DNA of 61,853 bases, counting the filler, from Hausera hauseri (lineage: Eukaryota), in the NCBI GenBank assembly GCA_046269625.1. It is 11 parts of 11 records of this genome, joined end to end, with 100 filler letters (N's around TTAATTAATTAA, not from the genome) between each part and the next. Parts side by side here need not be neighbours in the genome. Positions count along the whole stretch, not along the records: positions 14,947 to 19,108 come from JBJURY010727990.1; 10 more parts are not named here. One strand, given 5' to 3'. The position numbers and the translations under genes are program-made. Shown in pieces: positions 930 through 45,461 of the stretch (position 1 is its first letter; each line of letters opens with the position of its first letter). The notes beneath the pieces were generated by a model. That model saw only the letters and a list, made by a program, of their open reading frames with translations. It searched no databases and was not told the DNA's origin.

Positions 930-3900
930 CTCCCGCACACATGGGGGTGGACAATGTCACAAGGAAATGGCCAAATATTATTCAGTGGCCAAGGACACGT
1001 ACCTGTGTCCCGCATGTTTTATTCAAAACACATGCATGTACGCCGACTTTTATGAGATGCACAACCACCATCTCGGTCCGTTCATGCAGTCCTTTGATAA
1101 TGGATGTACATTGCCCCACATATCCGCGATACTGTAGTATTAGTAGAGTGCATGACGTTGATGGTTGCCAGTGTAATGAAACAGTACTATGGTGCCACAA
1201 CGGTGCACGGTAAATGGGCTTACATTTGTCCCGGTTGTTCTATAGTCGATGAAATCAACTATGAACAATTCTACAACATTCACGATGACCACTTTAACCA
1301 GTTTCAGATGTCCAAAAAAAAATTAATGAACGCAGCAAGAAGCAGCAGCAGCAGCAGCAGGAAATGTCAAGCATCAGCAAGCCTTGAAGTATACTTTCAA
1401 AACAACAGAAGTCATCAGCAGTAGCGGGAACGTGAACCGCTCATTACTGTCAAGTACGACCTAAACAGATCGTACGTGGACATGAAGGTGGATATGTCGG
1501 CGAAAACAGCAACGCAATTGAAGGGTGTACCCGCTAATGTGCGTAACCGGTTAGAATCAAAGGTGGCCAAATTCCAACATCACTGCCAAGTGCAATATTA
1601 TGCACTTGCATAATTTGAAAATCTGCAGGGTAACAGGAAACAATGGTACTTGTCACATCGAGCCGTACCATACTCTGAGGATTTTATCGCCGATGTAGGC
1701 GAAAAGCTTGACGAAAAAATCGCCAACTACACCGAAAAGGGCAGTGGTTGGCGATTTGTAAAGATTGTCACTTTCTGCTTTATTCTGACCAAGACGAGTG
1801 ACATGATTTACCTGTCTGGACGTTCATTCATGCCGACACTTGCATCCTTGAAGCAGTCTCTGGCGGTAGTGAATGTACAAAATACTAACGACGAATACTG
1901 CTTTATTTACAGAATTCTAGCCATATTAAAATATGATCAAGTGTCCAGACATCATGCACGTTGTCTAAAGCAATACAGTAAGTATTTCTCAGAATTAGAC
2001 TACAACGAGTGTTGGATGCCGATGAAACTCAAAACCATTCCGACATGGAAAATCAACGTGTTCCGGTACAATACAATCGTAGAAATACCACCAGACGAAG
2101 AGATACACAAAAATCCATACGTGGATATAATTTATCGCAGTCGGAACCCGAATTCACGCTCGGTAAATTTGTTGCTGTTGCAGCAAGCAAATAAATTTCA
2201 CTACGCGGCAGTAACCAATTTGGACAGACTACTGAACATAAATTACCACCAATTCATCAAAAAATGTATAAATTGTAAATGGTACCCTACATTTCTGCAT
2301 GATTCTAGGTCAAAAGCGACACGGGGAAAACATGGCGCTGTGCAGACAAAATTCACCAGGGACAACAATGTACGTCATGCCAGTCAACAAGTAGCTGAGA
2401 TTCAGTGACTGGTCAAAAACGGACCGTCCTGCATATGTGGTATATGCCGATATCGAGGCAATCCTACCGCGGCATGACGTAGACGACCAAAAGCACGTTG
2501 CAATCGCAGTCAGTATGTTTGTTGTTACAATAAAAGCCGCCGGACAACCACAATATTACGTTTTTCATGGCTGGAACTGTACAGCGATTTCCTGCAACAG
2601 TTGGTACAGTGGTACAGTAACAACAGCATTAAGCCCTTGATATGGACAGACGAATATGAACCGTTGCTTTTCACTCCCATCGATGAATGTTACCTCTGCC
2701 ACAAAATAATGCCTTTTCATGCACAGGAACGGCTCGTACCGGACCATGATCATTTCACCGGTCGATACTTGGGAGGAGCACGCAACGCATGCAATTTAAC
2801 AAGGCGTGCGCGGTCATTCCTATCGGTGATCTTTCATAATTTCCGAGGTTATGATTGTCACCATATACTGAAATGGGCCGTCAACGAATTTCCGTACTGA
2901 AAACTGTCAGTAATCCAAACAACAATGGAGATTTACCTGTCCCTGTCAGCACGCATAAACCGGTTCCCGGTACGCTTCCCTGATTCATTTGAATTTCTCA
3001 ATGAATCATTGGAAAATCTGGTAAATGCCTTACCGGATGTGCAGCCAACCTGAACGCAGTTCCCCACACATTGCACGTAGCAAAGGCATAATTCCATATG
3101 ACTTTGCAACATCATATGAGCGACTCCGGAAAGCAGAGGAATTACCGCCGCGATGGACATGCATCACAGAAGATGAATATCGGAGAGCACAAGAATCTTA
3201 GACAGAACTGAGCTGTAGAAACATGTTGAATTACATACTCCAGTATCTCAAACTGGTCATATACTTATTAGCCGACGTGTTCCAGGCGTTTCGAGCAAAA
3301 GCGTTGGCGGAAGATAGGCTGGAGCCACTCAACTTTTACTCAATACCCGGAATGAGTTGGATATCAGCTCTGATGTCACTGGATCGGGATATAGAGCTAT
3401 TGCAAGACCTGGAAATGTACAGAATGTTTGGTGTTGGTATTCGTGGCGGTATGACATTTGTCAAAATGCATCACGTAACCAGTGATGATACCACATCCTG
3501 TTGTATATCGACATTAATAACCTGTACGGCTGGGCATTTTCACAACCCTTGCCGTACAGTTCATTCGAATGGGTAGTCGACAAACAGAACCTGGACACAA
3601 TACTGGAAAATCTGTCAAGCAAAAAACAGCTCAATCGAATACTTGATGGAGGTCGATCTCGTGGTACCAGATGAGCTGCATGACTTTCTGGATGAACTGC
3701 CGGTTGCAATTAGCAAATGTACACCGGAATCGAAGGTGAAGAAGCTGCTTATGACGCATGAACCCAAGAAAAATTACATAGTTCATTGGCGTCTGTTGCA
3801 ATTTTACATGCAGTTGTGTGTACACGTAGTACGGCTACATAACGCAATACGATTTGCCCAGGCTGCCATATTCAAGGCGTACATAGATGGGAATTGCGGA

Positions 3901-4754
3901 AAACGAGCCGCAGCTTGAATAAAGTTCGAAAAGGACTACTACAAGCTGAAAAACAATTCCCTGTACGGAAAAACAGTGAAGAATCTGAAAAAGTGGCTCA
4001 ATGTACGCCCATGCAATAGCGAAAAGCGGTTGGTTACGTACGCGAGTAAGGCACAGTTTTGGCGGTCAATGCACATTGCCGATGGATTGGTTACGGTGCT
4101 GTTAAACCGGGAAGAAGTCATTCTGGACCGGCCAAGTTTTATAGGACAAGTGGTATTTGATCTGAGCAAGTTTCGAATGTATGAGCTGCAGTATCGCGAT
4201 TTGACACGTTACCGGTAAATGTTCAGCGGCGGCGGCGGCGGCGGCGGCGGCGGCAGGATCAATATAATTCCCGTGACACAGACAGTTTTTTCTTGGAACT
4301 GGAGAACTTCAATCGCGAAAAACTTCTGCAGAAAATGATGGCAGATGGATTACTGGACACGTCCAACTAACCACTGGATCATTCTTTGTACAGCAGCGCT
4401 ATCACTAACAAAATCGGCTGCTTCAAGGATGAAAGTGAAGGTCGTGTCCGGTATCGGGAATGGATATTTCTACGGCCAAAATGTTATAGCTTTTTAACTG
4501 ACTGTGGACCGAAAATGCGCACCAAAGGAGTTCAGTTGACCCAGACGGAAATCGACCACGATGATTGTCGCAGTGTCTATGAAGAAGGAGGAGACGTAGG
4601 ACAATCAAAGACTGTTGTGTCACAAACAATCATCCGATCTATTGAGCAGCATCTGTATACAGTGACTAATTCAAAAGTCGCTTTAGCATGTAATGATGAT
4701 AAGCTTAATTGGGTGGGCGGAATAAGAGTTGGGCGTACGGCCATTGGCGTTTGA
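930..4754 (+). pseudogene. Protein-primed family-B DNA polymerase (Polinton/Maverick/adintovirus/bidnavirus type), frameshifted, copy 1
   Basis: Ordered motifs across fragments: KGSGW, VNVQNTNDEYCF, YADIEA (Exo I), CYLC..DHDHFTGRYLG..NACN (endonuclease VII-like), FHNFRGYD (Exo II), YLLADVF (Exo III), GIRGG, YIDINNLYGW (motif A), KLKNNSLYGK (motif B), DTDS (motif C, near 4276), GCFKDE, LRPKCYS. AATAAA follows the stop. Confidence 0.93.
4228..4254 (+). repeat. (GGC)9 microsatellite inside pPolB copy 1
   Basis: Perfect repeat; absent from the aligned position in copy 2 (about 9010). Confidence 0.95.
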
Positions 4755-5058
4755 AATAAAACACGCACGCACACAGGTGAAATCGGTGCAGAGAGATAAA
4801 TTAACTATGACATTTTGTTGTGATCTGTGTTTTATAAATAATGTATGTTGTTCATTTTTTTGCCTTTTGTTGTATTATTTTATTATCATTTAATGTACCT
4901 TTATATTTAACTTAATGTGACGAGAAACAGTATGAAAACAAACAAAACCAATAAAATTTATTAATCATTATAAGCTAAAATCAAAACAAAGTAAGTCAAA
5001 TCAGCGTAAACTTTTCCAGCTTCCATATTGGTGATTTAACGCCGTGTAGATCTTTATA

Positions 5059-5942: not shown

Positions 5943-8900
5943 ACACCTGAACCAATTTCAGCGATCCTAAAAGCAAATCATAATGGACGAAACAAAGAGG
6001 AGCAGCAGCAGCAGCATTCCCGTAACCAGTAGGAAACATCAAGCATCCTCGAGTCTTGACGAATACATACAAAAAAGCAAACAGCAGCAGAATCAGCAGC
6101 AGCAGCAGGAACAACAACAACAACCTGACCTTCCTTTCATTACTGTCAAGTACAATCTAAACAGATCGTATGTGAACATAAAAGTTGACATGACACAGCA
6201 AATGTCAGTACAATTAAAGCATGTACCGTCCGGTGACCGCAACCGGTTAGAATCAGAAGTGAAGAAATACCAACACAACCACCACTGAAAGGTGCAGTAT
6301 TATGCACTGGCAGAATTTAAAAATTTGGAAGGTGACAGGAAACAGTGGTACTTGTAACATCGAGCCGAACCGTATTCCCACGATTTTATTGCCGATGTAA
6401 GCGAAAAGCTGGACGAAAAAATTGCCAACTATACGGAACAGGGTAGTGGCTGGCGAATTGTAAAGATTGTCACTCTCGGCTTTATCATAACAAAGTCGAG
6501 TGATATAATTCACCTGTCTGGGCGATCATTCATATCGACCCCTGCAACTCTGAAGCAGTCTCTGGCGGCAGTGAATGTAAAAAATACCGACGACGACTAC
6601 TGTTTTATTCACAGTATTCTGGCCATATTAAAATATGACCAAGTGGATAGACATAGTGCATATCATCTAAATCAGTATCAGCAGTATTTTTCCGAATCGG
6701 ACTTTGATGAAAGCTAAAAGCCGATGAAACTAAAAACCATTCCGACTTTTGAGCGGCGTAACCGGACACTGTCATTTAACGTGTTATGGTACAACACAAT
6801 CGTAGAAATACCGGCAGACGAAGAGATTTACAAAAATCCCAATATGGACATAATCTATAGAAGTCGGAACCAGAATGGACGCCAGATAAATTTGTTGCTA
6901 TTGGAGCAAAAGAAAAAATTTCATTACGTGGCCGTGACAAATTTGGACAGATTGCTGAACATGGAACATGACGAGTTCATTAAAAAGCGTATACGGTGTA
7001 AATGGTATCTTCTATGTCTGCACGGATTCGGATCGGAAACAATATGGGAGAAACTTGTGGCACTATGAAGACAAAATTCATCGAGAACAACAATGTACGT
7101 CATGCTATTCAAAAAGGCGATTCACTGAGATTCAGTGACTGGTTAAAATCCTACAATCCGGCATACGTGTTATATGCAGATGTTGAAGCAATTCTACCAC
7201 GGCACAATGTATACGATCAAAAGCACGTGCCAATCGCTGTCCGTATGTTGGTAGTCACAATAAAAGCCATTGGTCAACCACAGTATTATGTTTTCCACGG
7301 CTGAAACTGCATCCGTGATTTCCTGCATCAATTGGAAACAATAGTAGAAATGGAAGTTGCACCCTGATACAGTAATAATAGCAATAAACCCTTGATGTGG
7401 ACAGATGAATATGAACCGTTGATGTTTGCAGCCACCGATAAATGTTACCTGTGGCACATAATATTACCGTTCGATGCAGAGGAACGGCTCGTACGGATAA
7501 CGATCATTTTACCGGTCGATATCTCGGAGCCGCATGCAATTCATGCAATTTGGCAAGGCGTGTGCGACTATTCCTACCTGTGATCTTTCATAACTTCAGG
7601 GGTTATGATTGTCGCCATATTTTGAAATAAACAATAAGCGGATTTCCGCACTGAAAACTATCCGTAATTCCGACTACGATGGAAATATACCTGTCACTGT
7701 CTGCTCGTATAAACCGATTACAGATACGCTTCCCCGATTCATTGCAATTTTTCAATGAATCTCTGGCAAAGCTGGTAAATTCCTTGCCAGAGGTTTAGTT
7801 AACATTGACTCAGTTCCCTGTACACTTTGCGCGTAGCAAAGGCATATTTCCGTATAACTTTGTGATATCGTACGAGCGGCTCCATACGACAGACAAATTA
7901 CCACCGCAATGGTCCGATGTCACAAAAGAAGAATATCATAAAGCAGAGTTGTTTTGGACAAAGCTGGACTGCAGAAACCATTTGGATTACATGCTTCACT
8001 ATCTGAAAATGAATGTGTACTTATTAGCCAATGTGTTCCAGACATTTCGAGCTAAAGTGTTGGCAGAAGATAGGCTGGAGCCACTCAACATTTACTTAAT
8101 ACCCGAAATGGGTTGGGCATCAGTTCTGATGTCAGTGGATCGGGATATCGAGTTATTGCAAAACCCGGAAATGTACCGAATGTTTGATGTTGGTATTCGT
8201 GGCGGCATGACATTTGTCAACAATCACCATGTTAGTGCTGCTGCTGATGCTGCTACCATTGATGATACCACATCACTGTTGTATATCGCCATTAATAATC
8301 TGTACGGCTGGGCGCTTTCACAACCCTTGCCGTACGGTTCATTTGAATGGATAGTCGACAAACAGGACCTGGACGACATAATGGAAAATCTGCCGAGAGC
8401 CGACGCAACAGAAAACAGCTCAATCTGATACCTGGTGGAAATTGATCTCTTGGTACCAGATGAGCTGCATGACTTTCTGGATGAACTGCCATTCGCACCA
8501 ATTAGCCAATGTCCGCCGGGCTCGAAGGTGAAGAAGCTGCTTATGACGCATGAATCTAAGCAAAATTACATAGTTCATTGGCGTCTGTTGCAATTTTACA
8601 TGCTGCACGGTGTACGCGTCACACAGCTGATCGCGTAATCCGATTTGCACAGGGTCCGATATTCAAGGCGTATATCACTCGGAATTCAGAAAAACAAGCT
8701 GCAGCTTATACGAAGTTTGAAAAAGACTATTACATACTGAAAAACAATTTGCTCTGAGGAAAACAGTAGAATCTGAAAAAGTGGATCAATATACGCGTAT
8801 GAAATAGCGAAAAGAGGTTAGTCACCTACACGAGCAAGGTGCAGTTTAGGCGGTCAATCACATTGCCGATGGATTAGTTGCTATGCTTTTAAACAGGGAA

Positions 8901-9512
8901 GAATGCGTATTGGATCGGTCAAGCTATATAGGACAAGTGATATTGGACCTGAGCAAGTTGTAGATGTATGAGTTGCAGTATCGCGATTTGCCACGTTACC
9001 GGAAAATGTTTGGTGAATGCAGGATCAATATAATTGTCTGTGACGGAGGAAATTTTTTCTTGGAACTGAGAAACGCCAATCGAGAACAACTACTGCAGCA
9101 AATGATGGCAGACAGATTACTGGACACGTTCAATTACCCATAAAATCATCCATTGTACAGCAACACCATCACAAACAAAATCAGCTGCTTCAAGGATGAA
9201 AGTGAAGGTCGGATTCAGTATCAGGAATGGATATTTTTACGACCAAAATGTTATAGCCTTTTAACCGACTGTGGACCGAAAATGCGCGCCATAGGAATTC
9301 AGTTGGCCCAGACGGAAATAAACCATGGTGATTACCGCCGTGTCTATAAAGAAGAAGGACAAGGACGATCAAAGGCTGTTGTGTCTCAAACGATCATCCG
9401 ATCGATTGAGCACCAGCTACATATAATAACTAGTGCAAAAGTTGCTTTGTCATGCAACGATGATAAGCGAAAGTGGGTGGGACGAAATAAGAGTTGGGCG
9501 TATGGACATTGA
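5943..9512 (+). pseudogene. Protein-primed family-B DNA polymerase, copy 2 (close paralogue of copy 1; extreme N-terminus missing)
   Basis: Collinear with 1290-4754: QGSGW, DHFTGRYLGAACNSCN, FHNFRGYD, KGIFPY, GIRGG, INNLYGWALS, FKDE, LRPKCYS. Many stops and frameshifts; motif C is mutated. Confidence 0.93.
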
Positions 9513-11149
9513 GGGTTGAAATAAAACATGTTCGGTGGTGTCAGATCAGATCAGATCAGATACAGGCAATTCCATCTGGTCTGGATATTGTGACAATTGT
9601 TGACAATGATTATCTTTTGTACATTGTTTTATTTCAATGTTAATAATGTACTTTGCTCAGTGTCTTTTGTGTTTTGTTTTTCGATTATTTACNNNNNNNN
9701 NNNNNNNNNNNNNNNNNNNNNNNNNNNNNNNNNNNNTTAATTAATTAANNNNNNNNNNNNNNNNNNNNNNNNNNNNNNNNNNNNNNNNNNNNTTGGTCAT
9801 TTGGCTTCAAGTAAGATTTTAGATTCGTATAGTTCATCACTTTCCATTACGCTAATTATTTGTGCAAGAAGATTGGCAATATGGGCATCCTTTTTGAATT
9901 TACTTTTAACATTTGCATTTTGACAGAAGGTTGATATTTTATCCACAAATTTATTGTAAAGTTTAATACATTCATCATAACTTTCACAATTCTAAAAAGA
10001 TAATTAGAGATCATATAGAAAATTAAATTATAGGCTTATCAGAGCGGCTCTTCTTCATCCATTACAATTTTATCAAATTTTTCTTCAACTGAATCAGCTA
10101 TTTTACCACTGTTTCTATCCATAACAGTCGCATCGTTTTCTTCAGTTGGATCAGTTGAGTCGAGAATTGCGACTTTACCATTGTCGTCATGATATAATCG
10201 AATGAATTAGGATTTTGTTTCCATTTTAAAATGATTTCTGTGCAACTGCCAAGTGTATTTTACTAAATTGTACTCATATACTTCATTTTGATTGGTGGAA
10301 AAGATATACAGGTGTACGTTTATATATAAGTTGTATATAGGTGAAAAAATTTCCTATACTATATTTAAGGAATGGAAACCGAGACAATATATTGTTAATT
10401 ATGCTGATTACAAAACCATGTTTCTACACGGTAAATGCCGTATGATGGATTGTAAAAAACCTATTGTGGAAATAGATTTGCTATTAAATATTAAAGTAGA
10501 AAATATTCCCATATGTATGAATTTTAATGAAAATAAATTTAAATGACTTAGCACAAAATGTACTATGTTCATACGAACCAGAATTATTTTCAGCATTATG
10601 TGTAACTGATTTTAATTCATTTTGTAAATGTTTTTCATATTGGCAAGTTTATTCTCGGAATAAAGTCATTAGACTACGAACATAGAATTAATACAACTTG
10701 ATTTTATATATTCTACATTCAATGACTCAATGCATTCTGATTGGTTTATATTGAATGCTGGTGTAATAAAAAGTATACATTTTGATACTTCCACAGTAAA
10801 TTTCATTTCAAAATGTTTTATAGCTGTTCTCAGTTTTCAAGTTATCAATCCAATTTGTTATGTCAGTACGGGTTTTAACAGCCACAGGAATAAGGATTTT
10901 AACAACAACCACCACTATCATCACCACCACCACCAGAATATGGTTTCGAATATCCAGCCTGCTATCCACAGCCACCAACAACAACAAATTTATTTAATGT
11001 CCATTTTTAATATGATTACACATTTTAGTAAAATCATCAACTGCAAAGAAAACAATCAAACTTGAAGATACGTTGCCATTATTATTGTCCGATGATGAAG
11101 TTGATGAACTGTTCAATGCGTCATAAACATTTCACGGTTATGAAATCCA

Positions 11150-14846: not shown

Positions 14847-15111
14847 NNNNNNNNNNNNNNNNNNNNNNNNNNNNNNNNNNNNNNNNNNNNTTAATTAATT
14901 AANNNNNNNNNNNNNNNNNNNNNNNNNNNNNNNNNNNNNNNNNNNNATTTACGAAAATGCGATTATTTTATTAAAACAAAAATTCATTTAGAACAGAAAA
15001 TAAAAATTATTGGACATAAGTAGGTCGCAAATGCTATTTTATCTATTTCACATTTTATTAGGGATTGCAAATATATAAGATTTATTTATGTGATAATATA
15101 ATATAATCTAT

Positions 15112-16218
15112 GTGGATAAAACGACTACCACGATACTAAAGATAGTTACCAATAAAGTAACGGTAGAAAGGATGAACAAAATCCTACCTCATTTGGTACT
15201 ATTAGCTCAAGATATGAGTCCTGTAACAGAAATAGCTAGGACAGTATTGGCCAAAGCTGCTGAAGACGAGAAAGGAAGAAATGAAGTTATACGGATAATG
15301 GTAAGGGAAGGAAACCTAGGTATGATGATCATTAGGATGAACGAAATAGACGACATACGAACTTTAAGAGAAAAGATTAAGGAGTTGGAACCTTTTTACC
15401 AAGGAAGTCCTTACGGATTAAATTATTATGGAAGGATACTATATAACTATTATAAATTTTTGAGAATTAGATGTAGAAGTGTGAACTACAATCCGATAAC
15501 TATAACCGAAATATATCCAGAGGCAAGAGCACAGGCAACAGTGGAGAATATCTTAAGAGAAATAGAATCACATGGAGTAGAAGAAATCCCTACAGATGAT
15601 ACGCAAGACATCATAGTTCAGACGGAAGCCAATAGAAGAGGTAGGCCAAAAGGAACAAAAATAAGTGACATTCGCAATATGAAAGATAGAAATGAAGAAA
15701 GAGTAAAACGGTTATTATTAGCAGGAACAAATGGTACTCCCGAATCGGTGGATATAGATCCATTACTAAAAATGTTATTGGCTAAGCTACATACGTCATT
15801 TGCCTCATTTGACATGCAGGCAATAATCCCAGACAAATTATTCACAACATTATTTTTTTTATTATTTAATTTTATTAGAACCTAGACGAAGAACGGATAA
15901 ATGAACTACATGAGTTGGATATTTTGGAAAAAAATGTTCGCAACTGAAATCACGCGAGAGAAATCTCAAACGGCTGTATCCCATCTGCTATATAAATTAA
16001 TAGTAATTAATCACCAGGTTCAAAATATAGAAGAGATTGAGCTTAATATAAAAACAGCTGTCAAGATTTTGAAAGATACGCTAGGAAATTGGGTTCAGTG
16101 TAGAGGTGTATGGCTGACCAGCTTGATGACCAATATAGTAAGGTCAGGCGAACGAGAAAGAGTAATAGATACACCAACGGCGACCCAACCACACATCTCT
16201 AGACCAGGCATAACAAGT
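15112..16218 (+). pseudogene. Pre-Env part of the retroelement polyprotein: ubiquitin-like domain (about 15286-15510) and AT-hook (15634-15651)
   Basis: IRIMVREG..IIRMNEIDDIRTLREKIKE..YGLNYYGRIL follows the ubiquitin pattern; RRGRPKG. Same frame as the Env signal peptide; homologous to 41630-42800. Confidence 0.65.
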
Positions 16219-18355
16219 ATGTCAATAATGGAAATTCTTCATATTCTTATAATAACGTCGTTAATAATGCCAAAAGCCTTGGGTGTAGTGGCTTACGATT
16301 GTTCTAAACCTAGCGAAGGACAAAAGTACTCTCTAGTGGATCTAAAGAAATGTCCAAAAGCCGATCCAGAACAGCTAACAACTACAAGTGGGCTTACCTA
16401 TTGGGTGTATCAAGAATCGGAATTCATAAAAGCAAAAATTAGGGAATGTTATGTAAAAGATCGTTTTTCCTGTTTAATTGTGCCTACTATTCTGGAAATT
16501 CAGCCATAATTGAGCCCACGACACCTTTCGAACCAATAATAATATCACGAGCAGAATGCCAGGATGCCTTTAAGATTAGCATCATAACTATAAAAAACGC
16601 TCATATACCGGCAGTTAGAAACAGAATAAAATATACAAGAATTTTCAGGGCAGGAAGAATAGATAAAACAATAGAAGGCACCTGTAAGGGAGTAGATTAT
16701 GATGTTGGAGGTACCATTGCACCCATAATGGTAGCCATAGAAGATTATCAGATTCAGTTGAAAGAATGTGAAGGATTGTTCGATTCACAAACAAAATTGA
16801 TGACGATTATGAGTGAGTGTGAATATGATAATGGCGAATGTGATATGGGAGAGTCAAAAATGACATGGAAAACCTCTAAAAATAAATGCCAGTTGACATT
16901 GTTAAAGGAAGGAAAGTTTAACAAGACAGTAGGAAAAACGGCCGAAAAAGAAACAGCGACATATAAAGAAGGAACAAAGGAAGTTAAGATGGCGTAGGTA
17001 GCTACATTTGTATACTCGGAAAATACAGAAGAAATGATGCTATTTAAAATCACAGGAGTAGCAACTAAATGCAGTAAAGAAATATCAAAATCCAACTATA
17101 AGGGTATTTTCTTATCGAGAAAAAAAATACCCGGGGCAAAAACCAAGACAGACAAGAAGGATATAAAATAAACACAATATTTCAATAATAAGATCGATTT
17201 TCTAATTAACTATGTAAGAAAGGAAATTAGAGGTCTATATCGAGAGATAATAATGAATGAATGCAAGTTGAACTACGAAATAATGTGTGATAAAATGGCA
17301 CTGGTAATAACAAATCCAGACATGGTAGCGCCAGTAATGCCCTTCGGCGATGGAATTATCGGAAGAGTCATGGGCGAGGTATTGATAACAATAGAATTCA
17401 TAAAGGTGGAAGTATCAGTCAGACCAACGGATGAATGTACAATGGAATTACCTGTAGTTTACCATACCGAAGCGAGATATGTGATGCCAGTGACCAGAAT
17501 ACTATTAGCATTACTGTGAGACCTACCCCACTATATAATTGCACCTTCAGTATGTTGCCTATGTTTCGAACTGATAACGGCAAATGGACTAGAATGCCAA
17601 AAAGAGAGCCAGTAACCAAACCGGAAATATTAAGTTTGATTAATCCACAAAGGAATCAAAAATTCGAACCATTAACAGGAATATCACAGGGAGAAATTTA
17701 CACACAACAAAATCTAGAAGATTACCGACGAATGTTATTATTCTCCCAAAAGAGACAGAGAGTTATAACAGAATTAACCAGGAGAGTAATGTGGGATGGC
17801 GAAGGATCACCACAATTGGAAAATCTAATGGGTAAAGACTATTAAAAGAAGGTAACCAAGAACGTAATAAAAAAATGTGGAGAAAGTTCTTATATTTCGG
17901 TCAAGCAGCTTCCAGTTTTCTGGTTATTTATTTTATTATTATTTATTTTATTATTATTTATTTTATTATACGGACAGTATTTACGGCATTAGATGAGGCA
18001 TATGGAATACATGCAGCAGTGGGATGTTCATGGAAAATCCTAATAGCTGTAATACCGGCAGTAGCAAGTTGTTTTCTAGCAAATCACGATGCACGTTGGA
18101 AAAGAAAAATATTACAAAGGAAAGATATAAAAGAATCTCCGTATAGTGTACCTGATAATGATGATACCAAATATGATCGAGTAAAGGCAAAGACAAAATA
18201 CAAACGAGCAGCTGTTATTAGGCAACTAGTGCTAGAGACACGAAAGCCGAAATATAGACAGAAGTTAATAACTGACCTACCCCATCTATATCCCGTAGAC
18301 GAATATCATGGACAGTTATATAACGAGCAACCATTAGTGAATCCTTCTGCTCCCC
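16219..18355 (+). pseudogene. Class III fusion glycoprotein (chuvirus G/herpes gB-like Env), copy A
   Basis: Signal peptide then AYDC..YSLVDLKKC; FNCAYYS; ISRAECQ; CEYDNGEC; GRVMGEV; CTMELPV; PVTRIL; membrane region WRKFLYFGQAASSFLVIYFII..AYGIHAAVGCSWKIL; tail with LYP and PSAP. Confidence 0.88.
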
Positions 18356-19221
18356 GATGCGTAGTGCATACGGGATTATACCTGTTTCGTATCCCAACTA
18401 CCTTCTGGATTGTTCAAACCGTATTTTCAAGTTTTCGCGGGTCCGAGGATGGTCAGACATCCAAGGAGGCCTGCATCCCATGCACCAAATGGATTTATAA
18501 AAAATATATTTTTTAAGTACAAACACACACTCAAATTTCAGCGGCTTTTATTTAATTATTTTATAAACACATCATTTAATAAACAATAATAACCAACAAT
18601 ACTAAAAAGCTAACCCATTTGATCCTCGATATGGAACACTCCTCCCGCAGTAATTTCATCATCATTATTCATTTGGATCAGTTGTAATAAATCCTTGCAT
18701 TAAACAATCTCTGGATCAGATTTTTCTAATAAATATTAATCTCGCTTAAAGAAGATCTAATTTACTTTGAAAACCTTGGTGATGTTTCTGGTTGAATGGA
18801 TTATATCCCTTTGTGCTGGTCAACAAAACTTCAGGCTACTTTGCCTATATCCCGTTGAATAGAGGGTCCTTAAAAGTTAAAATTATTATTGTCAAATGAA
18901 TTTCAAAATATTTATCTTCAAGGTCTAGAATGGGTCGAAGTCGCGGAAAACAGTGGTAATCGTAAAACTGCGTCGTCAAAGAAAAATCTGTGCTGTCCAA
19001 GAACAGTGGCCGTCGCGGAAAAATTAGTGTTAGAGTGGTCGTTTGGACGCAGTTTATATAGTATTTTGGACGACCATTATCGTTAATCAAATCTGGAACG
19101 ATAAACAANNNNNNNNNNNNNNNNNNNNNNNNNNNNNNNNNNNNNNNNNNNNTTAATTAATTAANNNNNNNNNNNNNNNNNNNNNNNNNNNNNNNNNNNN
19201 NNNNNNNNCTCAGTCCCCAGG

Positions 19222-20208
19222 ATGTCCGTTCCCGAGAAGGACGCTCCAGATTTCCAAACTTCAACAGTGGAATCCTCTAAACACCACATGGATCAGTCAG
19301 ACTGTGAGGACACAACTGTTGCCAAAAAGCGCGTAAAGACTGCTGTACTGGATTCCTCGATAGAATCCGTCCCTCCCAGAAGTCACTCACCTGACAGAAT
19401 TATTCAGGACGATCAATATTCAACGGACTCGATTGATTCTCTCCAATTCACTCTGGAGTCTTCGGGCGTGCCTATTTCTTCACGGTTCGCAGGTCTGGAG
19501 GACCAGATGGAAGTAACATCCCCCACAGATGGGTTGCCAGATCCTTCGCCAGAAGTTGCTGATCCACCGTCGACTTCATCAAAACTACGTCGGAAAGCAA
19601 AAAGGGTTAACAGAACTAAACCATACGATCTGTCTCTTGCGTCCACTGAGATTCACCATCATTCTTCGGAAGGATTATCTATTGCTGATCATTTATCAGT
19701 CGAGGACCCAATGCCCACACAGTCCAGTCGATCGGAGAGTAGTGGGAGTCGTCAGAGACGCCATTCTCTCTCTTCAATCCCACAATTACCTCTTGAGACT
19801 GCGCACTCCGAGTTGGTTGAGCCTGTATCAGCCCCACTCAAGGAATTACCTGCTTCGTCGGCAGACCTCTCGTTGTCCGACACGAACAAGTCTCTTCCTC
19901 CCCGGGGTGGGGAGATACTGATTGCAGCACCTACTCCTAAAGGAGGTAAACGTTTGCCTTCGGACGACCCGGTAAACAACCGGTTGCATGACTTATTCAT
20001 TGGATCTTCAGAGTGCGCTGATTCTTATGGCGCTCTCAGTGCTTCCCGTCGTTCTCTTCTGCGTGACTACCCATTACCCCCAGGTTATACTGTTCGACCG
20101 GTGGATATTCCTCTCCCAGGGGAATCAAAGTCTCGGGGTAGTGATTCCCCAACCTCGAATAGTCAACAGATTCCGACGATCGTCTCCTCGCGAACTTTGA
20201 GGATTTAG
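19222..20208 (+). CDS. LINE ORF1, low-complexity Ser/Pro-rich C-terminal part
   Basis: 328 open codons directly upstream of ORF2; assigned by position only. Confidence 0.6.
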   Translation: MSVPEKDAPDFQTSTVESSKHHMDQSDCEDTTVAKKRVKTAVLDSSIESVPPRSHSPDRIIQDDQYSTDSIDSLQFTLESSGVPISSRFAGLEDQMEVTSPTDGLPDPSPEVADPPSTSSKLRRKAKRVNRTKPYDLSLASTEIHHHSSEGLSIADHLSVEDPMPTQSSRSESSGSRQRRHSLSSIPQLPLETAHSELVEPVSAPLKELPASSADLSLSDTNKSLPPRGGEILIAAPTPKGGKRLPSDDPVNNRLHDLFIGSSECADSYGALSASRRSLLRDYPLPPGYTVRPVDIPLPGESKSRGSDSPTSNSQQIPTIVSSRTLRI

Positions 20209-20276
20209 CATATGTTATCCAACACTATCATGTAAAAATACTTTGTCTACAAGAAATACAATTACGGGGCCGCATT

Positions 20277-23200
20277 ATGCGTCCCCCTTCTCACTTTCGT
20301 GCCCCTATTATATCTGAAAATAGAGGTCCCTCCGATAGAGGCGGGACTGCAATTTTAATACATCACACGATTCCCTTTACTGAATTGAGGCTTCAAAGTC
20401 CTCTACCAGCTGTGGCAGTTAGACTTCACGGTCACCAGCCTATTTCTATTATATCGATATATCTAGCGCCTAGTTGTGTTTATTCCAAAGCCGACCTTAT
20501 TTCTCTTATGGAACAGGTTCCTTCCCCAGTTTTATTTCTGGGAGACTTCAATCAGCGTCATCCGCTTTGGGGAGATGTTATTTCTTCTCCCGGGGCGGAC
20601 TGGATTGTTGAACTAATGTCCCTGAGGGAACTGGGGTGTTTAAACTCTGGTATTCCCACGTTTGAGAGATTTGACACGTCATCTTCGACGTGTGTGGACG
20701 TCTCCTTGTGCTCACTGTCAGTGCTGGAGAAATTTGACTGGTTGCGATTACCTTATCTATATGGCAGTTATCATTACCCCATCCTTATTCGTTCTTGCGA
20801 GACTGTTTCTTGTGCTATTTCGCCACTTAAGTGGAATTACGGAAGAGCGAAATGGGTCGACTTTTATGAGGAAACATACTGCCCTACACTACCTCACCCT
20901 AAGGAATTTCCCTCGGTGGACTTAGCCTACGATCATTTCCGATCGTTAGTTCTGGGTGCTGCAGAAAGACACATCCCCCGCACGGAGGGATGTTATCGTC
21001 GCTCCAACCCTTGGTGGTCGGCTGAGTGTGATAGGGCCCACAAGGCAAAGAATAAGGCCTATAACACGTATAAGAAGAATAGAACACCTGTTACTCTTAT
21101 CTTATTCAAGGTGGCGGCTGCGCGCTCACGAAGGATCAATCGACAGGCAAGGAGAACTTATTTTCGTTCCTTTGCTTCCACCCTTACTGCTGCTTCAACG
21201 TCGACGAAAATTTATAAGACCATTCGGAAGATCTCTGGGCGCCAGGCCCGTTTCCATACCTATTTATTGTCATACGGTCCGGCGACAGACGATGTGCTTT
21301 CGGAGCCGGGACCGGTGGCCGACTATTTTGGATATCATTTTGCAGCGGGGTCGAGCACGGACGCTTATGGACCCGCCTTCGCCGAACGAAGTCGCCAGGT
21401 GCCAGTTCTCAATTCTCAGGATCAGACCATCGATTCGTTATATAACCGACTTTTTACCGCCAAGGAATATACGGTGGCGCTGAAGGCATGTCGGGATTGT
21501 TCCCCGGGACCTGACGGCATCTCTTTTCAGATGCTTCGCCATCTTCACCCTTCGGCAACGGCATTCTTGCAGTGCCTAATCAATAGAATTTGGATTGAGA
21601 GCTCAATTCCTCAACTGTGGAAGATTACATATGTTGTCCCTATCCCAAAACCCGACAGGGATTCTTCCAGGGTTGCTAACTATCGACCCATTTCGCTTAT
21701 AGGGCACCCAAGTAAGCTTATGGAAAAAATGGTGGCTGTACGCCTTGCCTCCTTTATGGATTTTCACCGCGATTCGTTTGGCAATCAGTTCGGGTTCCAG
21801 AGGTTTTATTCGACCTTGGATCCCTTATTGCGCCTGGATCGCGATGTTCACAGATCACTCCACGAGAAACTTTCCACGGTGGCGATTTTCTTCGACATCG
21901 AGAAGGCATACGATACTGCGTGGAGAACGGGTATCCTTCTACGGCTCTATGTGGTGGGTTTGCGTGGTTTATTGCCACGTTATATTACAGATCTACTTTC
22001 GAGCCGCTACTTTAGGGTAAAGTGTGGGGGTGTCCTCTCCCGGTACTTCTTCCAGGAGGTGGGCATTCTTCAGGGTAGTGGACTCAGCGTCCTATTGTTT
22101 ACGATGAGCTTACTCTCTCTGCCAACACATATCCCTCCAGGGATTCAACACCTACTCTATGTGGATGATCTGGTGATTTACTTGAGTGGCTCCCGGCTAT
22201 CGCATTTACTTCGAGTGCTGCAGTTGGCGATCAATAGCATTGTGTCGTGGGCGAACGAATTGGGTATTACTTTTTCTTGTCTAAAAACAAAGGCCATGCT
22301 CTTCACCAGATCCCGTAAGTGTAAAAGGACCCTATCTGACTCCGATCCGTTACTCCTGAAGGGAGTTCCTATTGCCTTTGTCGACAGAGTTCGGTTCTTG
22401 GGGGTGATCTTCGATCCACGCTTGACGTATCGTTTTCATATCTTGCAGATTCGTCATACTTGTCACAAGGTGTTAGATATGTTGACACTAATTTCCTCAA
22501 AGAATTGGGGAGCGGATAGGCGACTGTTGCTGCGTCTCCTTAATATTTTGGTGTTGTCTAGGGTGGATTATGGAGATCTTTTATATGGACAAGCGGCAGT
22601 CTCAACATTAAATTTACTTAATCCTCTGCTGAATCGTGGGATTAGAATAGCGACAGGTGCATTCCGCTCCTCCCCGGGGGCCAGCCTGGAGGTGGAGGCG
22701 GATGCCCTCCCTCTTCCCCTCCGCCGTAAGCAACATCTTCTCTCCTTTTATTTTCGTCTTTGTGCTACTGACAGGATTAATTCACGAGCGTTGGCCCAGA
22801 GCATGCGCGGTGATTATGAATCCTGGCCTCTTTCGGATACGGTCTCTGCTTTCTTATCACATCCATCCTATGCATCTGTTCACATTCGAAGATTTTCTCT
22901 TCCAAAGACGTTCGGTTGGTGGAACTTTACTCCTCCAAGAGTATGCCCATTTCATTTGACAGCTGGTTCTTTGGCATCTACTCTTGAGAGCAAACATCGC
23001 TTTCTTGCCCATTGTTCTACCCATCAGCAAAGTATTCCCATTTACACCGATGGCTCCAAGACCAACACGGGTACGGGGGCTTCCATCATATTACCACATT
23101 CTTCGGTGGTGCTTCGCCTCCCACCTATGACATCGTCCTACACAGCTGAGCTGATGGCGATACAGAACGCATTGCGTATCGTGTTACGTTCTAATGACCT

Positions 23201-23757
23201 ACACAACTGTGTCCTATTTACAGACTCACACAGCTTTGTACAGGCGATCGCTGATCCTCTGACCAAACATCCAATAGTCAATGAGATTCGTGATCTAGTT
23301 TTTCAGTTGGAGAAACGGCTTAAGCTAGTTACATTTTGCTGGGTGCCTGCTCATGCTGGAATACAGGGCAACGAAACAGCGGACCGCGCAGCAAGAAAAG
23401 GGTCTGAGGCCCTTTCTTGTGATCGGGGGGAGGTCCTATGGGACCTCCGAAGAGTGGCCGTTCCCGCTTCGGATCTATGTGCCGTGGTTCGTGCGGATTG
23501 CCGACGACTGTGGCAGGTAGCTTGGTCCGACACTGATACTTCGAACAAATTAAGGTCGGTCAAGCCCAAGATTGGACCATGGACTTCTTCATCTCATTTC
23601 GATCGTAGAGCGGAGGTGGTCTTGGCTCGTCTTAGGATAGGCCACTGCTTCTTCTCCCATGGGCATCTCATGTCCCAATCAGCTCCGGCGACTTGCACAT
23701 TCTGCGGGCTAGACGTTCTTCTCTCGGTATCACATATCTTGTTACATTGTCCGGGAA
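20277..23757 (+). CDS. LINE ORF2: AP endonuclease, reverse transcriptase, RNase H, C-terminal Zn knuckle
   Basis: GDFN..HPLWG; SPGPDGI; NYRPISL; QFGF; FFDIEKAYD; QGS; YVDD; YTDGSK, AELMAI, FTDS, WVPAHAGIQGNETAD; RLRIGH..CTFC..HILLHC. An in-frame LCLQE lies upstream of the annotated ATG. Confidence 0.96.
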
Positions 23758-38800: not shown

Positions 38801-39540
38801 AAGCAGTATTTCGAAATCTTAACTATCATCCATCCACTGCCCATTTCCGCAAAATTTTCAACCTGTTTACTTAAACTATCAGCAACAGACTGTGGGTAAG
38901 ATTGCTCATCAGGGACAGCGCTATCACCTCCTTTCTATCACCTTAAGAATTCTCAAAAAAAATCTCAAGACCATACTGAACCTTAAAAGATAGAAAACGA
39001 GAAGTGTACATATGCAAAGTAGTTAGAATCTCTTCAGGCGGTCGAGTAGAAATAAGATGGTCGGGCGCAACATCAAAACACAAACTCAAATAATTATTAT
39101 CAAGGACAGATTATACATTAAGTCTCGTATTTCTTACTGATTAATGTCTTAGTTTTTTCATGGGAATGGATTGTTTAGTCTGGTTGATTACACGTTTGAT
39201 TGTCCGTTTGACTGGTTGATGCGTTGTTTGGGTTGATATTGTTGGTATTTGTTGGTCTGTTGTTGGAATTTGTTGGGATGGCAATTGTTGGTCCAGTACA
39301 AATTGTTTGGCCATGTTTGTTATCTCCTTGTATTCTCGTACGATAGTTTTTTAGGTTTTGTAAAGTATGTGAGATGATGTTGATGTTGCTGTCGAAACGC
39401 TGGAAATGTTAGGCAGGAAATGACCTCACAGGTTGGACAAATATAAAATTCACGTCCGTCTATTTTTGCACCATAGTATTTCGACATTGTTTCTTCACAT
39501 GTCTCAGGTGAATGTATCTCACCAGTGCAGTAATTGAAAT
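35883..39540 (-). pseudogene. Protein-primed family-B DNA polymerase, copy 3 (divergent subfamily)
   Basis: MGSGW, INVRNDDNLCFL, YADFES, CYFC..VRDHCHITGKFLGLACNKCN, FHNLRGYD, FLDSLQFL, KLDVYLLGDVFE, YIDVNNL, KLKNNSLYG, GKFKGE, LRPKSYA; motif C appears deleted near 36325. Confidence 0.93.
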
Positions 39541-40659: not shown

Positions 40660-41630
40660 CTTGTCGAAATATTGCGTTAGTTTTATATCGTTTTTATCTC
40701 TCTTTATCTTTGCTCCAGGTATCTCCTTCGGTGATAGAAAGATACCCGTATAATTAGTTCTAGATATTTCTTGGTTACATCTACTTATCGTTCCCGTGAT
40801 TTTAAATCGCATCAATTCTTCTGGATTCTCCGAATGCAGGATTGCGACCACTTCTGTCATCTTAATTTCTTTCGTTCCTTTTTTATACGTTGCTGTTTCC
40901 TTCTCAGCCGTTTTACCCACTGTCTTATTAAATTTTCCTTTCAACAACGTCAAAAGACACCGATTTGTCGATGCTTCCCATGTCATTTTTCATTCTCCAG
41001 TATCGCATTCACCGTTATTGTATTCGCATTCATTTCTTGTTGTCATTACCTTTGTTTGCAAATCAAACAGTGCTTCGTATTCCTTCAGTTTGACTTGATA
41101 ATCTTCGATTGCTACTGTTCTTGGAGCAATAACACCTCCAACATCGTAATTTACTCCAACACAAGTACCTTCTATGGTTTTATCAATTCTTCCTGCCCTA
41201 AAAATTTGTGTGTATTTTATTCTGTTCCGGACTGCGGATATGTGTGCATTTTGAATCGTTATTATTCCGGTCTTAAAAGCGTCTTGACATTCCGCTCGCG
41301 ATATTATTATTGGCTCAAAGGGTGTTGTTGGCTCTATAATGGCCGAATTTCCGGAATAGTAAGCACAATTGAAGAGAAAAAATGACTTCTTTACGTAGCA
41401 TTTTCTAATTTTCACTTTTATAAACTCAGATTCTTGATAAACCCAGTATATATGACCACTTGTCGTTGTTAGCTGTTCTAGATCGGCTTCCGGGCACTTC
41501 TCTCTGTCAACTAAGGAGTATTTCTGTCCTTCACCAAGTTTTGAGCAGTCGTAGGCCACAATATCCATGGTCTTTGGCATCAACAATCATGTTATTAAGA
41601 GTATCTGGAGAATTTCCATAACTGACATAC
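40660..41630 (-). pseudogene. Class III fusion glycoprotein, copy C (N-terminal half)
   Basis: VAYDCSK..KYSLVDREKC..FNCAYYSGNSAIIEPTTPFEPIIISRAECQDAFK; long identical stretches with copy A. Confidence 0.88.
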
Positions 41631-43320
41631 CCCTTATGCCTTGTCTTGGGGCATGTATATTTGGTTGAGCGGTGGTTGTTGTATCCATTGGTCTTCCATA
41701 TCCTTCTAGCCTTGTTGTACTAGTCTTTAAACTTGTCTACCAACCGCCTCTGCATTGAACCCAATTTTCTAAGGTTTCCTTCAGAATTTTGACTGCTACT
41801 TTAATGTTCCGGTCATTTTTTTATAAATTTTGAGTCTAATGATTGATTACAATTACTTTGTGCAGGAGGTAGGCTACAGCTGTTTGTGCTTTTCTTGCAT
41901 AATGCCTGTCGCAAACATCTTTTCCAAGATGTTTTGTTCGTGTAATTCGTTGATTCGCTCTTCGTTAATGTTTTCGTAAAACTGTATGCTAATTCTTAAC
42001 ATGCTATTTACGCGGTGTTTGAAATAAATCGACCGGAATCGCTACCTTCATATCAAAAGACGCGAATGAGATATGCAACTTTGCTAACAAAGTTCTTAAT
42101 AAGGACTTTACATCTATTGATTCTGGCGTAGCTTCCGTTCCTGCAATAATAAACTTCTTACTATTTCGTCATTTCTATCTTTCTTATTGTGGATGTCGCT
42201 TATCTTTGTTCCTTTGAATCTTCCTCGTCTTTTGGCCTCTGTTTGAACTGTAACATCTTGAGTATCGCCTATAAGGTGCTCTTCGTGCTGCTCCATCTCC
42301 ATAATTATGTTGCCTATCGTTCCTTCAACACTTACATCGGCATGTATTTCCGTTATCATAATCGGATTATATGTTTCGCCTTTACATCCGATTCTAAATA
42401 ACTTATCGTTACTATACAATGTTCTTGCGTAGAAATTTAATCCGTAGGTTTTCTTCTTATAGAAGGGTTCCAATTCTTCTATCTTTACGCGTAGGGCTTG
42501 TATATTGTCTGTTTATTTCATTCTGATAACTCTCATGTCTTGATTTCCTTCCCTTATTGTCACACGTACTGATTCGTTTCTTCCTCTTTCATCTCCAGCT
42601 GCTTTGGCTAGCACCGTATGTGCTATTTCTCTTACAGGGCTCTCATCGTGAGCAAATAATAGCAGATGGAACAGAATTTCGTTTATTTTCTCTGTCGATA
42701 CTTTGCTGTCAATTAGTTTAAGTATTGTAGTGGTTGCTCTATCTACGTTGACTATGTTTTCGAGACCAATACTCAGTATTAGTTGAATGATATCATCTTT
42801 GTCTAAATCTACATTCATGTCTTGTAGTTCTTGATCAAATACTGTTTTGTCAAATGTTTTTGTGGGTTGATTTTCATCTTGATTTGATGAAAGGGTACTA
42901 AGGCTACTTTTGGGCGTGCTGAGATTACTTTCCTTTCGTCCCCTTTTCTTCTTTCCCTTTTCTATCTCTCTTCTTTCCGTTGATTTCTCTCTTAATTCGA
43001 CATCGATTATCTTCTTATTACTTTTCTTTTTTCCTTGACGAGATACTTTTTCTTTTGTTTTGTCCTCTACCATATAAATATCATTTTCCCGTAGTCGTCT
43101 TTGCTGTGTTTTGTAATCCTTTAATTCCACTGCTAATTGAGTTTTCATACGTTGGGAGACTATGTGGTTAACATAATTTACACTTTCTTTCTCCTTCGTT
43201 TCGTGTTCACTGACACTATCCTCCGTTTCGTATTCTTTATCATATGATTCATCTGACGTGGCTGATGTATAATCCTTCTTTTCCTGTTTATTCCTATAAG
43301 CTTTTGAAGGTTCCCTTCTG
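41630..43320 (-). pseudogene. Post-Gag spacer, ubiquitin-like domain (about 42348-42572) and AT-hook-like motif
   Basis: ORFs 43347-43799, 42513-43148 and 42114-42473 share one frame and are separated only by point stops; VRVTIREG..YGLNFYARTL; KRRGRFKG. Confidence 0.7.
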
Positions 43321-45290
43321 TGGTATCTGCATGTTTTTGCTATATGCTAATATTTGTTACAATTAAAACATTTCAATCTCCTTTCGGAGTCTATATTGGG
43401 CAATGCTCTTCCATCTTTAATTGCGGGTTTCTTTTTATACTTTGACTTATCCCCATCGTTCTTTAACTTAAATGTCACTTTCTTCTCTATGTGTGATTCA
43501 GATTCTGTAGCTGACGTTTGTGATGGAGTTCGGTTTCTAACATATCGACCGTATCGTTTTATCTCATTATTTTGTCGTCTGTCCGTATTATTACTGTCAC
43601 TTCTAGACTTGTTCCACCGATATAATTCGGCATCTAGTTCGGCTTTACGTGCTTTTCTTATGGCCTCTTGAAACGTAGGTGAGTCGGCCTTCAGGATTAT
43701 CGTCCTTAACTTTCCTTCTAGTCCATATTGAAATTCGGCCAATAATGCATTGTTTCTTATGGTAACGTTAGGGTATGCTCTGGCTGCAAACTTTTTCAAT
43801 GCGCAGACAAAATCTTGGACTGTTTCGTCTTTACGTTGACTTCTTATTAATTCTTATATTCTCCCCTTTCCAGAGAGATCTATTAAAAACTTTTAAGCCA
43901 ATTTTTCTCTAATTCCTTTCCAATCCTTCTGTGGTGTCCACAGCAGCCGGCGCCCTCTGGCCCATTTGTTTGGGCACGGACGGGTGTCCGCCGCCGCCGC
44001 GTCAGGCCATAGGCGGGCCCCGATCTCTCGCCTTAGAGATAAAATCACTTACCTAATATTTATGTCATTCTGATTTTTCTGCCTTGAACCTTATAATTAT
44101 TTCTCACCAATCACTGGATACACTTTGGACTTTAACCACAACAAATCAAATCAAGAAGAGTAAGTTGAGTTACATTTAATTTTCGAAGAAAATTGTAACA
44201 AAACAAAATTATGTTCCACTATGTGCTGCACTAATGAATGTTTCCAAAGTGTCATTCGTTCCAACCCCACAAACGATTTTTGTTATAATGGTCAAAGAAG
44301 ACAATTGAAAATATTTGGAAAAGTTTAGTCGATGTTACTGAGAATATTCGACAAAATAACAATGAAGAAGAATTAATCAATTTGGAAAAAGAATTACCGC
44401 TGTCTGCAGAGTCAAATTGGTTGTTTGACTGCAATTGTAAGAATTCCGATTTCGTTACGTCATTCAATGAATTGAAATCCTCCAATCCGTTAATCAGAAA
44501 TATCATCAAGGACATTTATCAGAATGGAAAATCCAAACAAATTCTTCACAATTTACTCTATTGGAATGATAAAATGGCGAATAGCTGTGATAATTTCGGA
44601 TCTATGCTTCAAAGAAGTCCCGTTTCAAATCGCCCATTATCAACTTCTCGGCATCAACACTCGTTGATTATTGCGTCATGATTATATAAGAGCAATTTAC
44701 GCGATAGTGAAAGTTCAACAGATTCATTGAATAGTTCAACTGGCAATATGAATCAAAATGACAAAAAAGTTGTTTTAATCTTGTAAATAAATGAATTAGT
44801 GGCCATTTCGAATATTTTGTTGTCAACATCGCCATTGTGGAAATTGTCGTGCAGTTGTTGTTCTGGATTTATTGACTAGTTTTGTTGATTTACTATTTAC
44901 TGTTTACTATTTGCTGTTCCAATTTGCTCCTGCAGTTTTTCGTATTGTTATTATTTAATCGTTGGATTTTTTAAGTTCACAAGTGGTGTCAGAATTCTTT
45001 TTGGAATTAATATTGCTTTGTATCGACGGATATTTAGCTTCAATGAAAACCCTCACCTTCTTATTGTCATCTGGCATTTGGAAGTATATCGTTAGAGCTG
45101 TCCCTTTTAGATGGAGAGGTAATCTCTGCACTCTACTTATCGTTTCATCCAAAACTTTTGGAATATACTTAATATTCCATTATGAAATCGTGTACATCTT
45201 TTTCTGAAAACTTTTTCACGGGAAGCGTGTAGTCAGCCTTTCACTGGATATATTGTTCCATCATGTTTGCATTGTGATTCGCCGTCATTT
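43321..45290 (-). pseudogene. gag: Gag (capsid plus CCHC knuckle) of the Env-bearing element, split by a solo LTR
   Basis: RLPLHLKGTAL..Y (45060-45140) joins KDWKGIREKL..QRKDETVQDF..AARAYP..EFQYGL..TFQEAIRKA; CFNCNKY*HIAKTC at 43329-43370. Confidence 0.85.
43930..45055 (+). mobile_element. Solo LTR (1126 bp) with 5-bp target-site duplication CCTTC
   Basis: TG...CA ends; CCTTC at 43925-43929 and 45056-45060; removing it restores gag in frame (MPDDNKKDWKG). Confidence 0.9.
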
Positions 45291-45440
45291 CGTTTTCTTC
45301 AAATAAATTATGTAGGTACTCTAAACCGAAATGTGGTTCGTTATCTTCTGAAACGCTATTCTCCTGATATTTAACACCACTTCACGTCGAAATCTTGCTT
45401 ATTTTCTTTCAAATAGTTTTTATAATAATTTTCTCATACG

Positions 45441-45459
45441 ATCCCGGGTCACGGCACCA
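45441..45459 (-). promoter_or_regulatory. Primer-binding site complementary to tRNA-His
   Basis: TGGTGCCGTGACCCGGGAT, 2 nt after an LTR-like ...GAACA end and about 150 nt upstream of gag. Confidence 0.85.
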
Positions 45460-45461
45460 GT

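Follow-up and report, generated by a model that had tools for sequence, protein, structure and literature searches.

Among the systems described so far, the closest to the elements reported here is the planarian Burro/GYPSM1. In the available text of PMC6431247, a Ubi2/SUMO-like domain of Burro lies between a MATH and a BCL-2 domain and is followed by an Env in frame between Gag and Pol, which matches the fusion proteins of mononegaviruses. Burro also carries BIR and other domains connected with apoptosis and ubiquitination, and an interference with both processes has already been suggested (Arkhipova and Yushenova 2019, PMC6431247, as excerpted). Chary and Hayashi, in the accessible portions of PMC13524379, describe GAG-ENV-POL errantiviruses with an Env of the HSV/gB type in Platyhelminthes, Bryozoa and Nematoda; neither ubiquitin nor AT-hook occurs in the main text of that paper. 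Two viral systems provide further points of comparison. Ubl1 of coronavirus nsp3, a beta-grasp domain that is not conjugated, forms part of a viral polyprotein bound to membranes (PMC8769549, PMC9938351, both in excerpt), and cytopathic pestiviruses carry a ubiquitin fold within theirs (PMC8310069, in excerpt). The former belongs to an unrelated virus and is a functional analogy only. In the latter, according to the same excerpt, a near-complete host ubiquitin is cut by host hydrolases, whereas the domain considered here is highly diverged and lacks the Gly-Gly end.

Here we analyse a stretch of 61,853 nucleotides of Hausera hauseri DNA (GCA_046269625.1), hereafter the window. It is made of short contigs, 12 by our count, joined by fixed N spacers, most of them with a linker that has stops in all frames, and the order across these spacers carries no information on genomic neighbourhood. 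A ubiquitin-like domain (UBL) lies on three separate contigs, namely copy 1 (14947-19108, plus strand), copy 2 (29230-35782, minus strand) and copy 3 (40161-45945, minus strand). All three copies are decayed elements of the GAG-ENV-POL Ty3/gypsy type, each on a small contig of its own (Table 1).

Architecture of the elements and their relatives

In copies 1, 2 and 3 the UBL stands upstream of a PF24664 (Monjiviricetes_fusion) glycoprotein, which is split into frame pieces, and the Pfam scan thus finds an Env of the gB/chuvirus type in every copy. Self-BLAST gives an identity of 70.8% over 2.1 kb between copies 1 and 3; copy 2 is distant from both. At this identity copies 1 and 3 form one subfamily, so that the window holds two lineages rather than the three strongly divergent subfamilies proposed in the sequence-only reading. 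That reading had also given every copy a Gag on one side of the domain and an Env on the other. The Env side of this statement stands throughout, while Gag is visible in copy 3 only: in copy 1 only 150 bases of the contig, which begins at 14947, precede the ORF, and in copy 2 the contig ends beyond an upstream ORF of 256 aa whose Pfam matches are weak and of coiled-coil type. The order Gag-Env can be followed in copy 3 and in the relative P0002 (see below) and the order Env-PR-RT in copy 2, where the last Env piece shares one open frame with the retropepsin and the RT comes next; no single copy has all of it. Self-BLAST revealed no paired LTRs for copies 1-3, the contigs of 4-7 kb stopping short of LTRs, primer site, RNase H and integrase. 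The assignment to GAG-ENV-POL gB-type Ty3/gypsy elements, drawn from gene order and Env type, is a probable one. In one sequencing run, which may share the source of the window, 12,969 contigs match the copy 1 contig at 80% or more, which would be consistent with a large repeat family.

Table 1. Features of the three element copies in the window
Copy	Feature	Position	Strand	Evidence
1	Helical domain before the UBL, N-terminal part missing	15100..15285	+	ORF 15097-15885; 40/62 identical to copy 3, 14/62 to P0002; helical by residue pattern only
1	Ubiquitin-like (beta-grasp) domain, no Gly-Gly	15286..15510	+	Aligned to the Pfam ubiquitin region of P0002; profile matches RAD23A and other UBLs; own model unusable
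1	AT-hook-like RRGRPKG	15634..15654	+	P0002 has this core at 585-590
1	Likely Bcl-2-like helical domain, interrupted around 15850-15930	15730..16115	+	Covered by tblastn of P0002 412-865; WVQCRGVW at 16090
1	Hydrophobic signal segment followed by gB/chuvirus-type Env in five frame pieces, starting with AYDC at 16291	16222..18200	+	Five successive pieces match PF24664, E 3e-6 to 8e-20
2	Upstream ORF, 256 aa, coiled-coil-like, not recognisable as Gag	34966..35781	-	Weak coiled-coil-type Pfam matches only; contig end at 35782
2	Helical domain before the UBL	34490..34724	-	P0002 380-456 scores best here, without gaps, shuffle z 4.2
2	Ubiquitin-like domain, no Gly-Gly	34254..34481	-	Pfam, PDB, model, Foldseek, VIA; best ORF window for copy 1/3 segments
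2	Basic motif RPVGRQRK, non-canonical hook	34050..34073	-	Sequence
2	Helical region colinear with the Bcl-2-like domain of P0002	33600..34004	-	Best window for P0002 618-752, shuffle z 3.1; no Pfam match of its own
2	gB/chuvirus-type Env, several frame pieces	31700..33540	-	PF24664 on 3 of 4 pieces scanned; tblastn with P0002
2	Retropepsin, sharing the open frame 30616-32007 with the C-terminal portion of Env	30724..31020	-	Single ORF matching RVP (E=4.8e-5) and PF24664 (E=1.5e-11)
2	Reverse transcriptase	29299..30030	-	RVT_1 E=7.3e-32
3	Gag: capsid in two pieces (45225-45054; 43925-43485) parted by other sequence of ~1.1 kb; CCHC knuckle ~43373-43329	43329..45225	-	tblastn with P0002 Gag; zf-CCHC E=0.072
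3	Ubiquitin-like domain, in-frame stop at 42515-42513	42348..42572	-	40/74 identical to copy 1, 23/72 to P0002
3	KRRGRFKG, hook core P replaced by F	42210..42233	-	Sequence
3	Likely Bcl-2-like domain, stops and frameshifts	41740..42150	-	tblastn with P0002 609-1105; WVQCRGGW at 41763
3	Signal segment and Env ectodomain, truncated	40663..41620	-	PF24664 E=1.5e-19; tblastn with P0002

An Env query retrieved one uninterrupted relative of 1130 aa, P0002, among 147 candidates. Its alignment with copy 1 extends over the entire region (BLASTP E=3e-21), and it holds in one frame the Gag, the helical domain, the UBL, RGRPKG, the likely Bcl-2-like domain, a putative signal peptide and the Env. Pfam matches zf-CCHC at 197-212, ubiquitin at 473-522 (E=0.031, under the curated cut-off), Bcl-2 at 651-748 (E=0.055) and PF24664 from 793, and the capsid matches dArc2 (E=0.0068). 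Its hydropathy profile exceeds 1.5 in a single window, which begins at 784, after the Bcl-2-like domain and just ahead of the AYDC with which Env starts. Gag to Env start takes about 800 aa in P0002, and likewise in copy 3. Queries with the UBL region in word-based protein searches gave no related sequence among 129 and 1098 candidates, and the 286, 1 and 43 pattern matches from scans of viral and metagenome contigs did not include a relative.

How do these elements compare with Burro? By the domain order published for Burro/GYPSM1 (PMC6431247, available text), they share with it a Gag with a CCHC knuckle, a UBL, a Bcl-2-like domain (a weak call) and an Env in frame before PR and RT. The differences concern size and cargo: Burro has a giant ORF of ~4,900 aa with MATH, BIR and ankyrin domains, as given in that text, whereas copies 1 and 3 and P0002 are compact, with one knuckle and, by Pfam, none of these domains, a comparison that covers copy 3 and P0002, copy 2 being truncated upstream. 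Lacking Burro's size and other cargo, copies 1 and 3 and P0002 cannot be counted as Burro in the strict sense. The available part of the Burro description (PMC6431247) names neither a helical domain ahead of the UBL nor the RGRPKG hook. Between PR and RT, where the same source gives Burro a dUTPase-like region, copy 2 has a 95-aa beta-rich ORF (30371-30658, minus strand) without a Pfam match. The coiled-coil-like ORF of copy 2 recalls the Smc-like region of Burro, and the copy 2 element may exceed copies 1 and 3 in size.

With the errantiviruses of PMC13524379, as far as its accessible portions show, the elements share the order Gag-Env-PR-RT and the gB-type Env. Furthermore, the Env of copies 1 and 3 resembles, by eye only, six Schmidtea Env rows given there, in YQES-F, E-C, C-G and a final C-TGES. 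The elements reported in those portions are intact, whereas the window copies are decayed. Our search found no published description of the hook, the helical domain, the shared anchor or the polar residue at the Ile44 position; it did not extend to Repbase reports, Grohme et al. 2018 or figures, where the hook or the helical domain may be described. As the pairing of a UBL and a chuvirus-like Env in the interval from Gag to Pol has been published for Burro, the present finding adds members and no new kind. The UBL-Bcl-2-Env block is kept in compact elements of two distant lineages and is, for this reason, likely to be the core of the accessory region.

The window holds several other mobile elements. 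Three decayed loci of a protein-primed DNA polymerase B, Polinton-like, lie at 1290-4763, 5944-9528 and 35883-38934 (PF03175 on two ORFs), the first two being 77% identical. A non-LTR retrotransposon at 19209-23757 (plus strand) has an open endonuclease-RT-RNase H frame of 1216 aa and an ORF1. Decayed env-less gypsy elements, with pieces of PR, RT, RNase H and integrase, are found at 47324-51640 and 56552-58327 (plus strand), and the latter is flanked by 3.3-kb repeats (52330-55610 and 58578-61853, 86% identical) which hold a fragment of another coding sequence. A long pyrimidine-rich simple-repeat tract occupies 23858-29129; its part 23858-25720 is identical to 27267-29129, possibly through an assembly duplication.

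The ubiquitin-like domain

The three segments of about 75 aa pointed out in the sequence-only reading are confirmed, the last two on the minus strand, which it had left unstated. They are, very probably, a ubiquitin-like domain without a Gly-Gly end inside a Gag-to-Env polyprotein. The most direct evidence comes from copy 2. Pfam gives a UBX match (E=0.013), and against the PDB the top two of four matches are ISG15 (E=1.3-1.4). The single-sequence AlphaFold model (pLDDT 57.7) has the succession strand-strand-helix-strand-strand with the last strand unformed. Its Foldseek list is made mostly of SUMO, ubiquitin, UBX and NEDD8, none of them at E<=0.001, and the best VIA match is the Get5 UBL (Z 5.9, rmsd 2.7 over 65 residues), nearly all of the 50 rows being beta-grasp. 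Copy 2 is thus modelled as a beta-grasp of low confidence. For copies 1 and 3 the direct tests (Pfam, sequence search) were blank and the model reached a pLDDT of 46.5 without a meaningful Foldseek match; their fold is supported via P0002, which aligns with both and has the Pfam ubiquitin match. The proposed ubiquitin-like fold holds up, at low confidence, for copy 2 by structure comparison and is supported for copies 1 and 3 through P0002 and the profiles described next.

A profile of copies 1 and 3 with P0002 matches the RAD23A UBL over its full length (four of six matches, best E=0.05). When copy 2 is included, 15 of the 19 matches of the resulting four-sequence profile belong to the ubiquitin family, each of them weak (E 0.22-2.1). 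The Atlas places ubiquitin and Rad60-SLD clusters at 0.79-0.81, below its trust level of 0.9. Within its ORF, the copy 2 UBL is moreover where the copy 1 and 3 segments score best, with 36 against 4 or less in 314 distant windows, and the P0002 UBL has its best window there also. HHalign of copies 1 and 3 against copy 2 picked the right place at a probability of 0.3 and E=0.23, which is not significant. Pairwise shuffles of the copy 1 and copy 3 UBL segments against copy 2 gave z values of 2.7 and 3.7 in global and 1.5 and 2.6 in local alignment; the shuffle z values listed in Table 1 for P0002 windows in copy 2 are best-of-scan, hence optimistic. These statistics are each weak and none passes a curated threshold, yet they agree with one another.

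Two properties of the domain restrict what it could do. No Gly-Gly follows the UBL in any of the four sequences (copies 1-3, as proposed at the outset, and P0002), the only GG of P0002 being at residue 746, and the UBL would on this account be neither conjugated nor a cut site for a hydrolase of the pestivirus type. In addition, the position aligned to the Ile of the RAD23A motif QKLIYAGK, which we take to be equivalent to Ile44 of ubiquitin, is N, N, H and Y in the four sequences, an observation which rests on weak alignments. Such residues make a canonical binding to proteasome or ESCRT receptors through the Ile44 patch unlikely, and this part of the earlier proposal is weakened accordingly.

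A comparison of copies 1 and 3 shows purifying selection on the UBL: dN is 0.28 with dS near saturation, so that the ratio of about 0.09 is a rough one. The length and register of the UBL are kept across two distant lineages and P0002, and the helical, UBL and Bcl-2-like blocks are colinear in the divergent copy 2 and in P0002, which supports an integral UBL retained under selection, as the sequence-only reading had it. That reading further expected the domain to be more conserved than the flanking spacer, and was ready to be refuted on this point; this excess is absent. The UBL is identical at 40/74 positions and the linker at 16/36 between copies 1 and 3 (p=0.42), and at 20/73 and 10/33, respectively, between copy 1 and P0002 (p=0.82). 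Between copies 1 and 3 its identity is also below that of the helical flank (40/62), and it reaches 54% against 76-84% for Env. A UBL less conserved than Env fits a fast-evolving or loosely constrained domain.

Domains around the ubiquitin-like domain

A domain of helical pattern and of roughly 75 aa, which had been overlooked, precedes the UBL. Behind the UBL come the basic motifs RRGRPKG, RPVGRQRK and KRRGRFKG, just as they had been quoted. The AT-hook consensus is a core [RKP]-G-R-P with basic flanks, and the core is canonical in copy 1 and in P0002 but not in copies 2 and 3. The pattern occurs 3 times in the six frames of the window, and Pfam gives no AT-hook match in the window ORFs or P0002. 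The 12 residues of the hook are nevertheless the best-kept stretch against P0002, with 8/12 identical positions versus 64/228 (p=0.008, for a stretch chosen post hoc). A candidate AT-hook, locally conserved, is left for one of the three window copies and P0002. Another basic GR motif is seen upstream of the helical domain, as KKKRGRKE at 42947 (minus strand) in copy 3 and as VGRPKK at residues 305-310 of P0002.

The domain after the hook, likewise absent from the sequence-only reading, is likely Bcl-2-like, as judged from sequence comparison. The P0002 match to Pfam Bcl-2 extends over positions 6-100 of the 100 in the family, at the weak E value given above. The window pieces of this domain have no Pfam or PDB match, and the Atlas gave none either. 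Copies 1 and 3 share within it the motif WVQCRG[GV]W, which resembles a BH2 motif.

A possible host-control arm and its alternatives

What could a UBL do in this place? We propose, with a probability of roughly 0.45, that it serves for docking, without being conjugated, in a predicted host-control arm anchored in the membrane. This arm would consist of the helical domain, the UBL, the basic hook and the likely Bcl-2-like domain. The hydrophobic segment before AYDC is a putative internal signal peptide of Env and would direct Env into the lumen. A cut on the lumenal side would then leave the N-terminal part, UBL included, in the cytosol, held by the hydrophobic helix as a tail anchor. Cellular Bcl-2 proteins carry their tail anchor at the corresponding place, and the predicted anchor helix would likewise lie directly behind the Bcl-2-like domain. 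The protease of the element would release the capsid and the knuckle, and the UBL would recruit or decoy a factor of the host ubiquitin system via a surface other than the Ile44 patch. The outcome would be a producing cell kept alive and element proteins kept stable. This model leaves the conserved basic hook unexplained.

The main rival starts from the hook. The UBL and the hook could attach to the nucleocapsid or RNA of the element itself and link the core with the Env-bearing membrane. The UBL does stand between the zinc knuckle and the Env anchor in one chain, the hook is the best-conserved stretch against P0002, the loss of an Ile44-type patch suits a non-host partner, and Ubl1 of coronavirus nsp3 binds the N protein (PMC8769549 and PMC9938351, in excerpt). 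We nevertheless hold such an adaptor to be rather unlikely: most enveloped gypsy elements assemble without this domain, as far as the main text of PMC13524379 reports, where the word ubiquitin is absent, and the UBL travels with a Bcl-2-like domain. An appreciably less probable role is that of a degradation tag, in which the UBL would pass the N-terminal part to the proteasome or p97, in the style of RAD23, ubiquilin or UBX proteins, and so tune the equimolar products of a single frame. The closest sequence neighbours, the UBLs of RAD23A and ubiquilin, and the UBX match of copy 2 point that way; however, the residues N, N, H and Y at the Ile44-equivalent position do not suit it, and the RAD23A and ubiquilin matches, being weak (E 0.05-2), mirror fold more than function.

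Ubiquitin fusions can stand in for retroviral late domains, and ubiquitin is bound by ESCRT through its Ile44 patch. A mimic of ubiquitin for ESCRT budding, one of the options of the sequence-only reading, would agree with the former and with the cytosolic position in a Gag-linked chain. It has only a small chance of being correct, as the Ile44 patch is absent here and late-domain-like motifs are found instead behind the transmembrane segment of Env. These are PSAP at 18343 (plus strand, copy 1) and ELYPIGELRQL, of the type LYPxxxL, at 31155 (minus strand, copy 2), which we class as late-domain-like by consensus; each is one of two matches in six frames, and they may be real ESCRT contacts. 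The captured fold could also be nothing but a folded spacer today. This very improbable reading would account for a conservation no higher than that of the linker, but it is opposed by the purifying selection and by the length and register preserved across two distant lineages and P0002. Finally, a processing signal cut by host deubiquitinases has its precedent in cytopathic BVDV (PMC8310069, in excerpt). The pestivirus analogy is largely refuted, and the probability left to it is minimal: host hydrolases act there on a near-complete ubiquitin, whereas the UBL is far from ubiquitin in sequence, all four sequences are without Gly-Gly, and the element encodes its own protease.

We thus retain the host-control arm as the preferred reading, and it allows a wider and rather doubtful proposal. 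The cassette formed by the helical domain, the UBL, the AT-hook and the Bcl-2-like domain might be conserved as a core component of even compact enveloped gypsy elements, and the Env signal peptide might at the same time provide a virus-encoded Bcl-2 protein with its tail anchor. The small size of these elements makes isolated domains testable, unlike the 4,900-aa protein of Burro. If the arm is a membrane-anchored regulator of cell death, it would reveal a route by which host cells are manipulated by enveloped retrotransposons. If the wider proposal is true as well, one hydrophobic helix would both start the fusogen and make a membrane-bound, UBL-tagged regulator of cell death, and a retrotransposon would possess a host-control protein in the style of poxviruses and herpesviruses.
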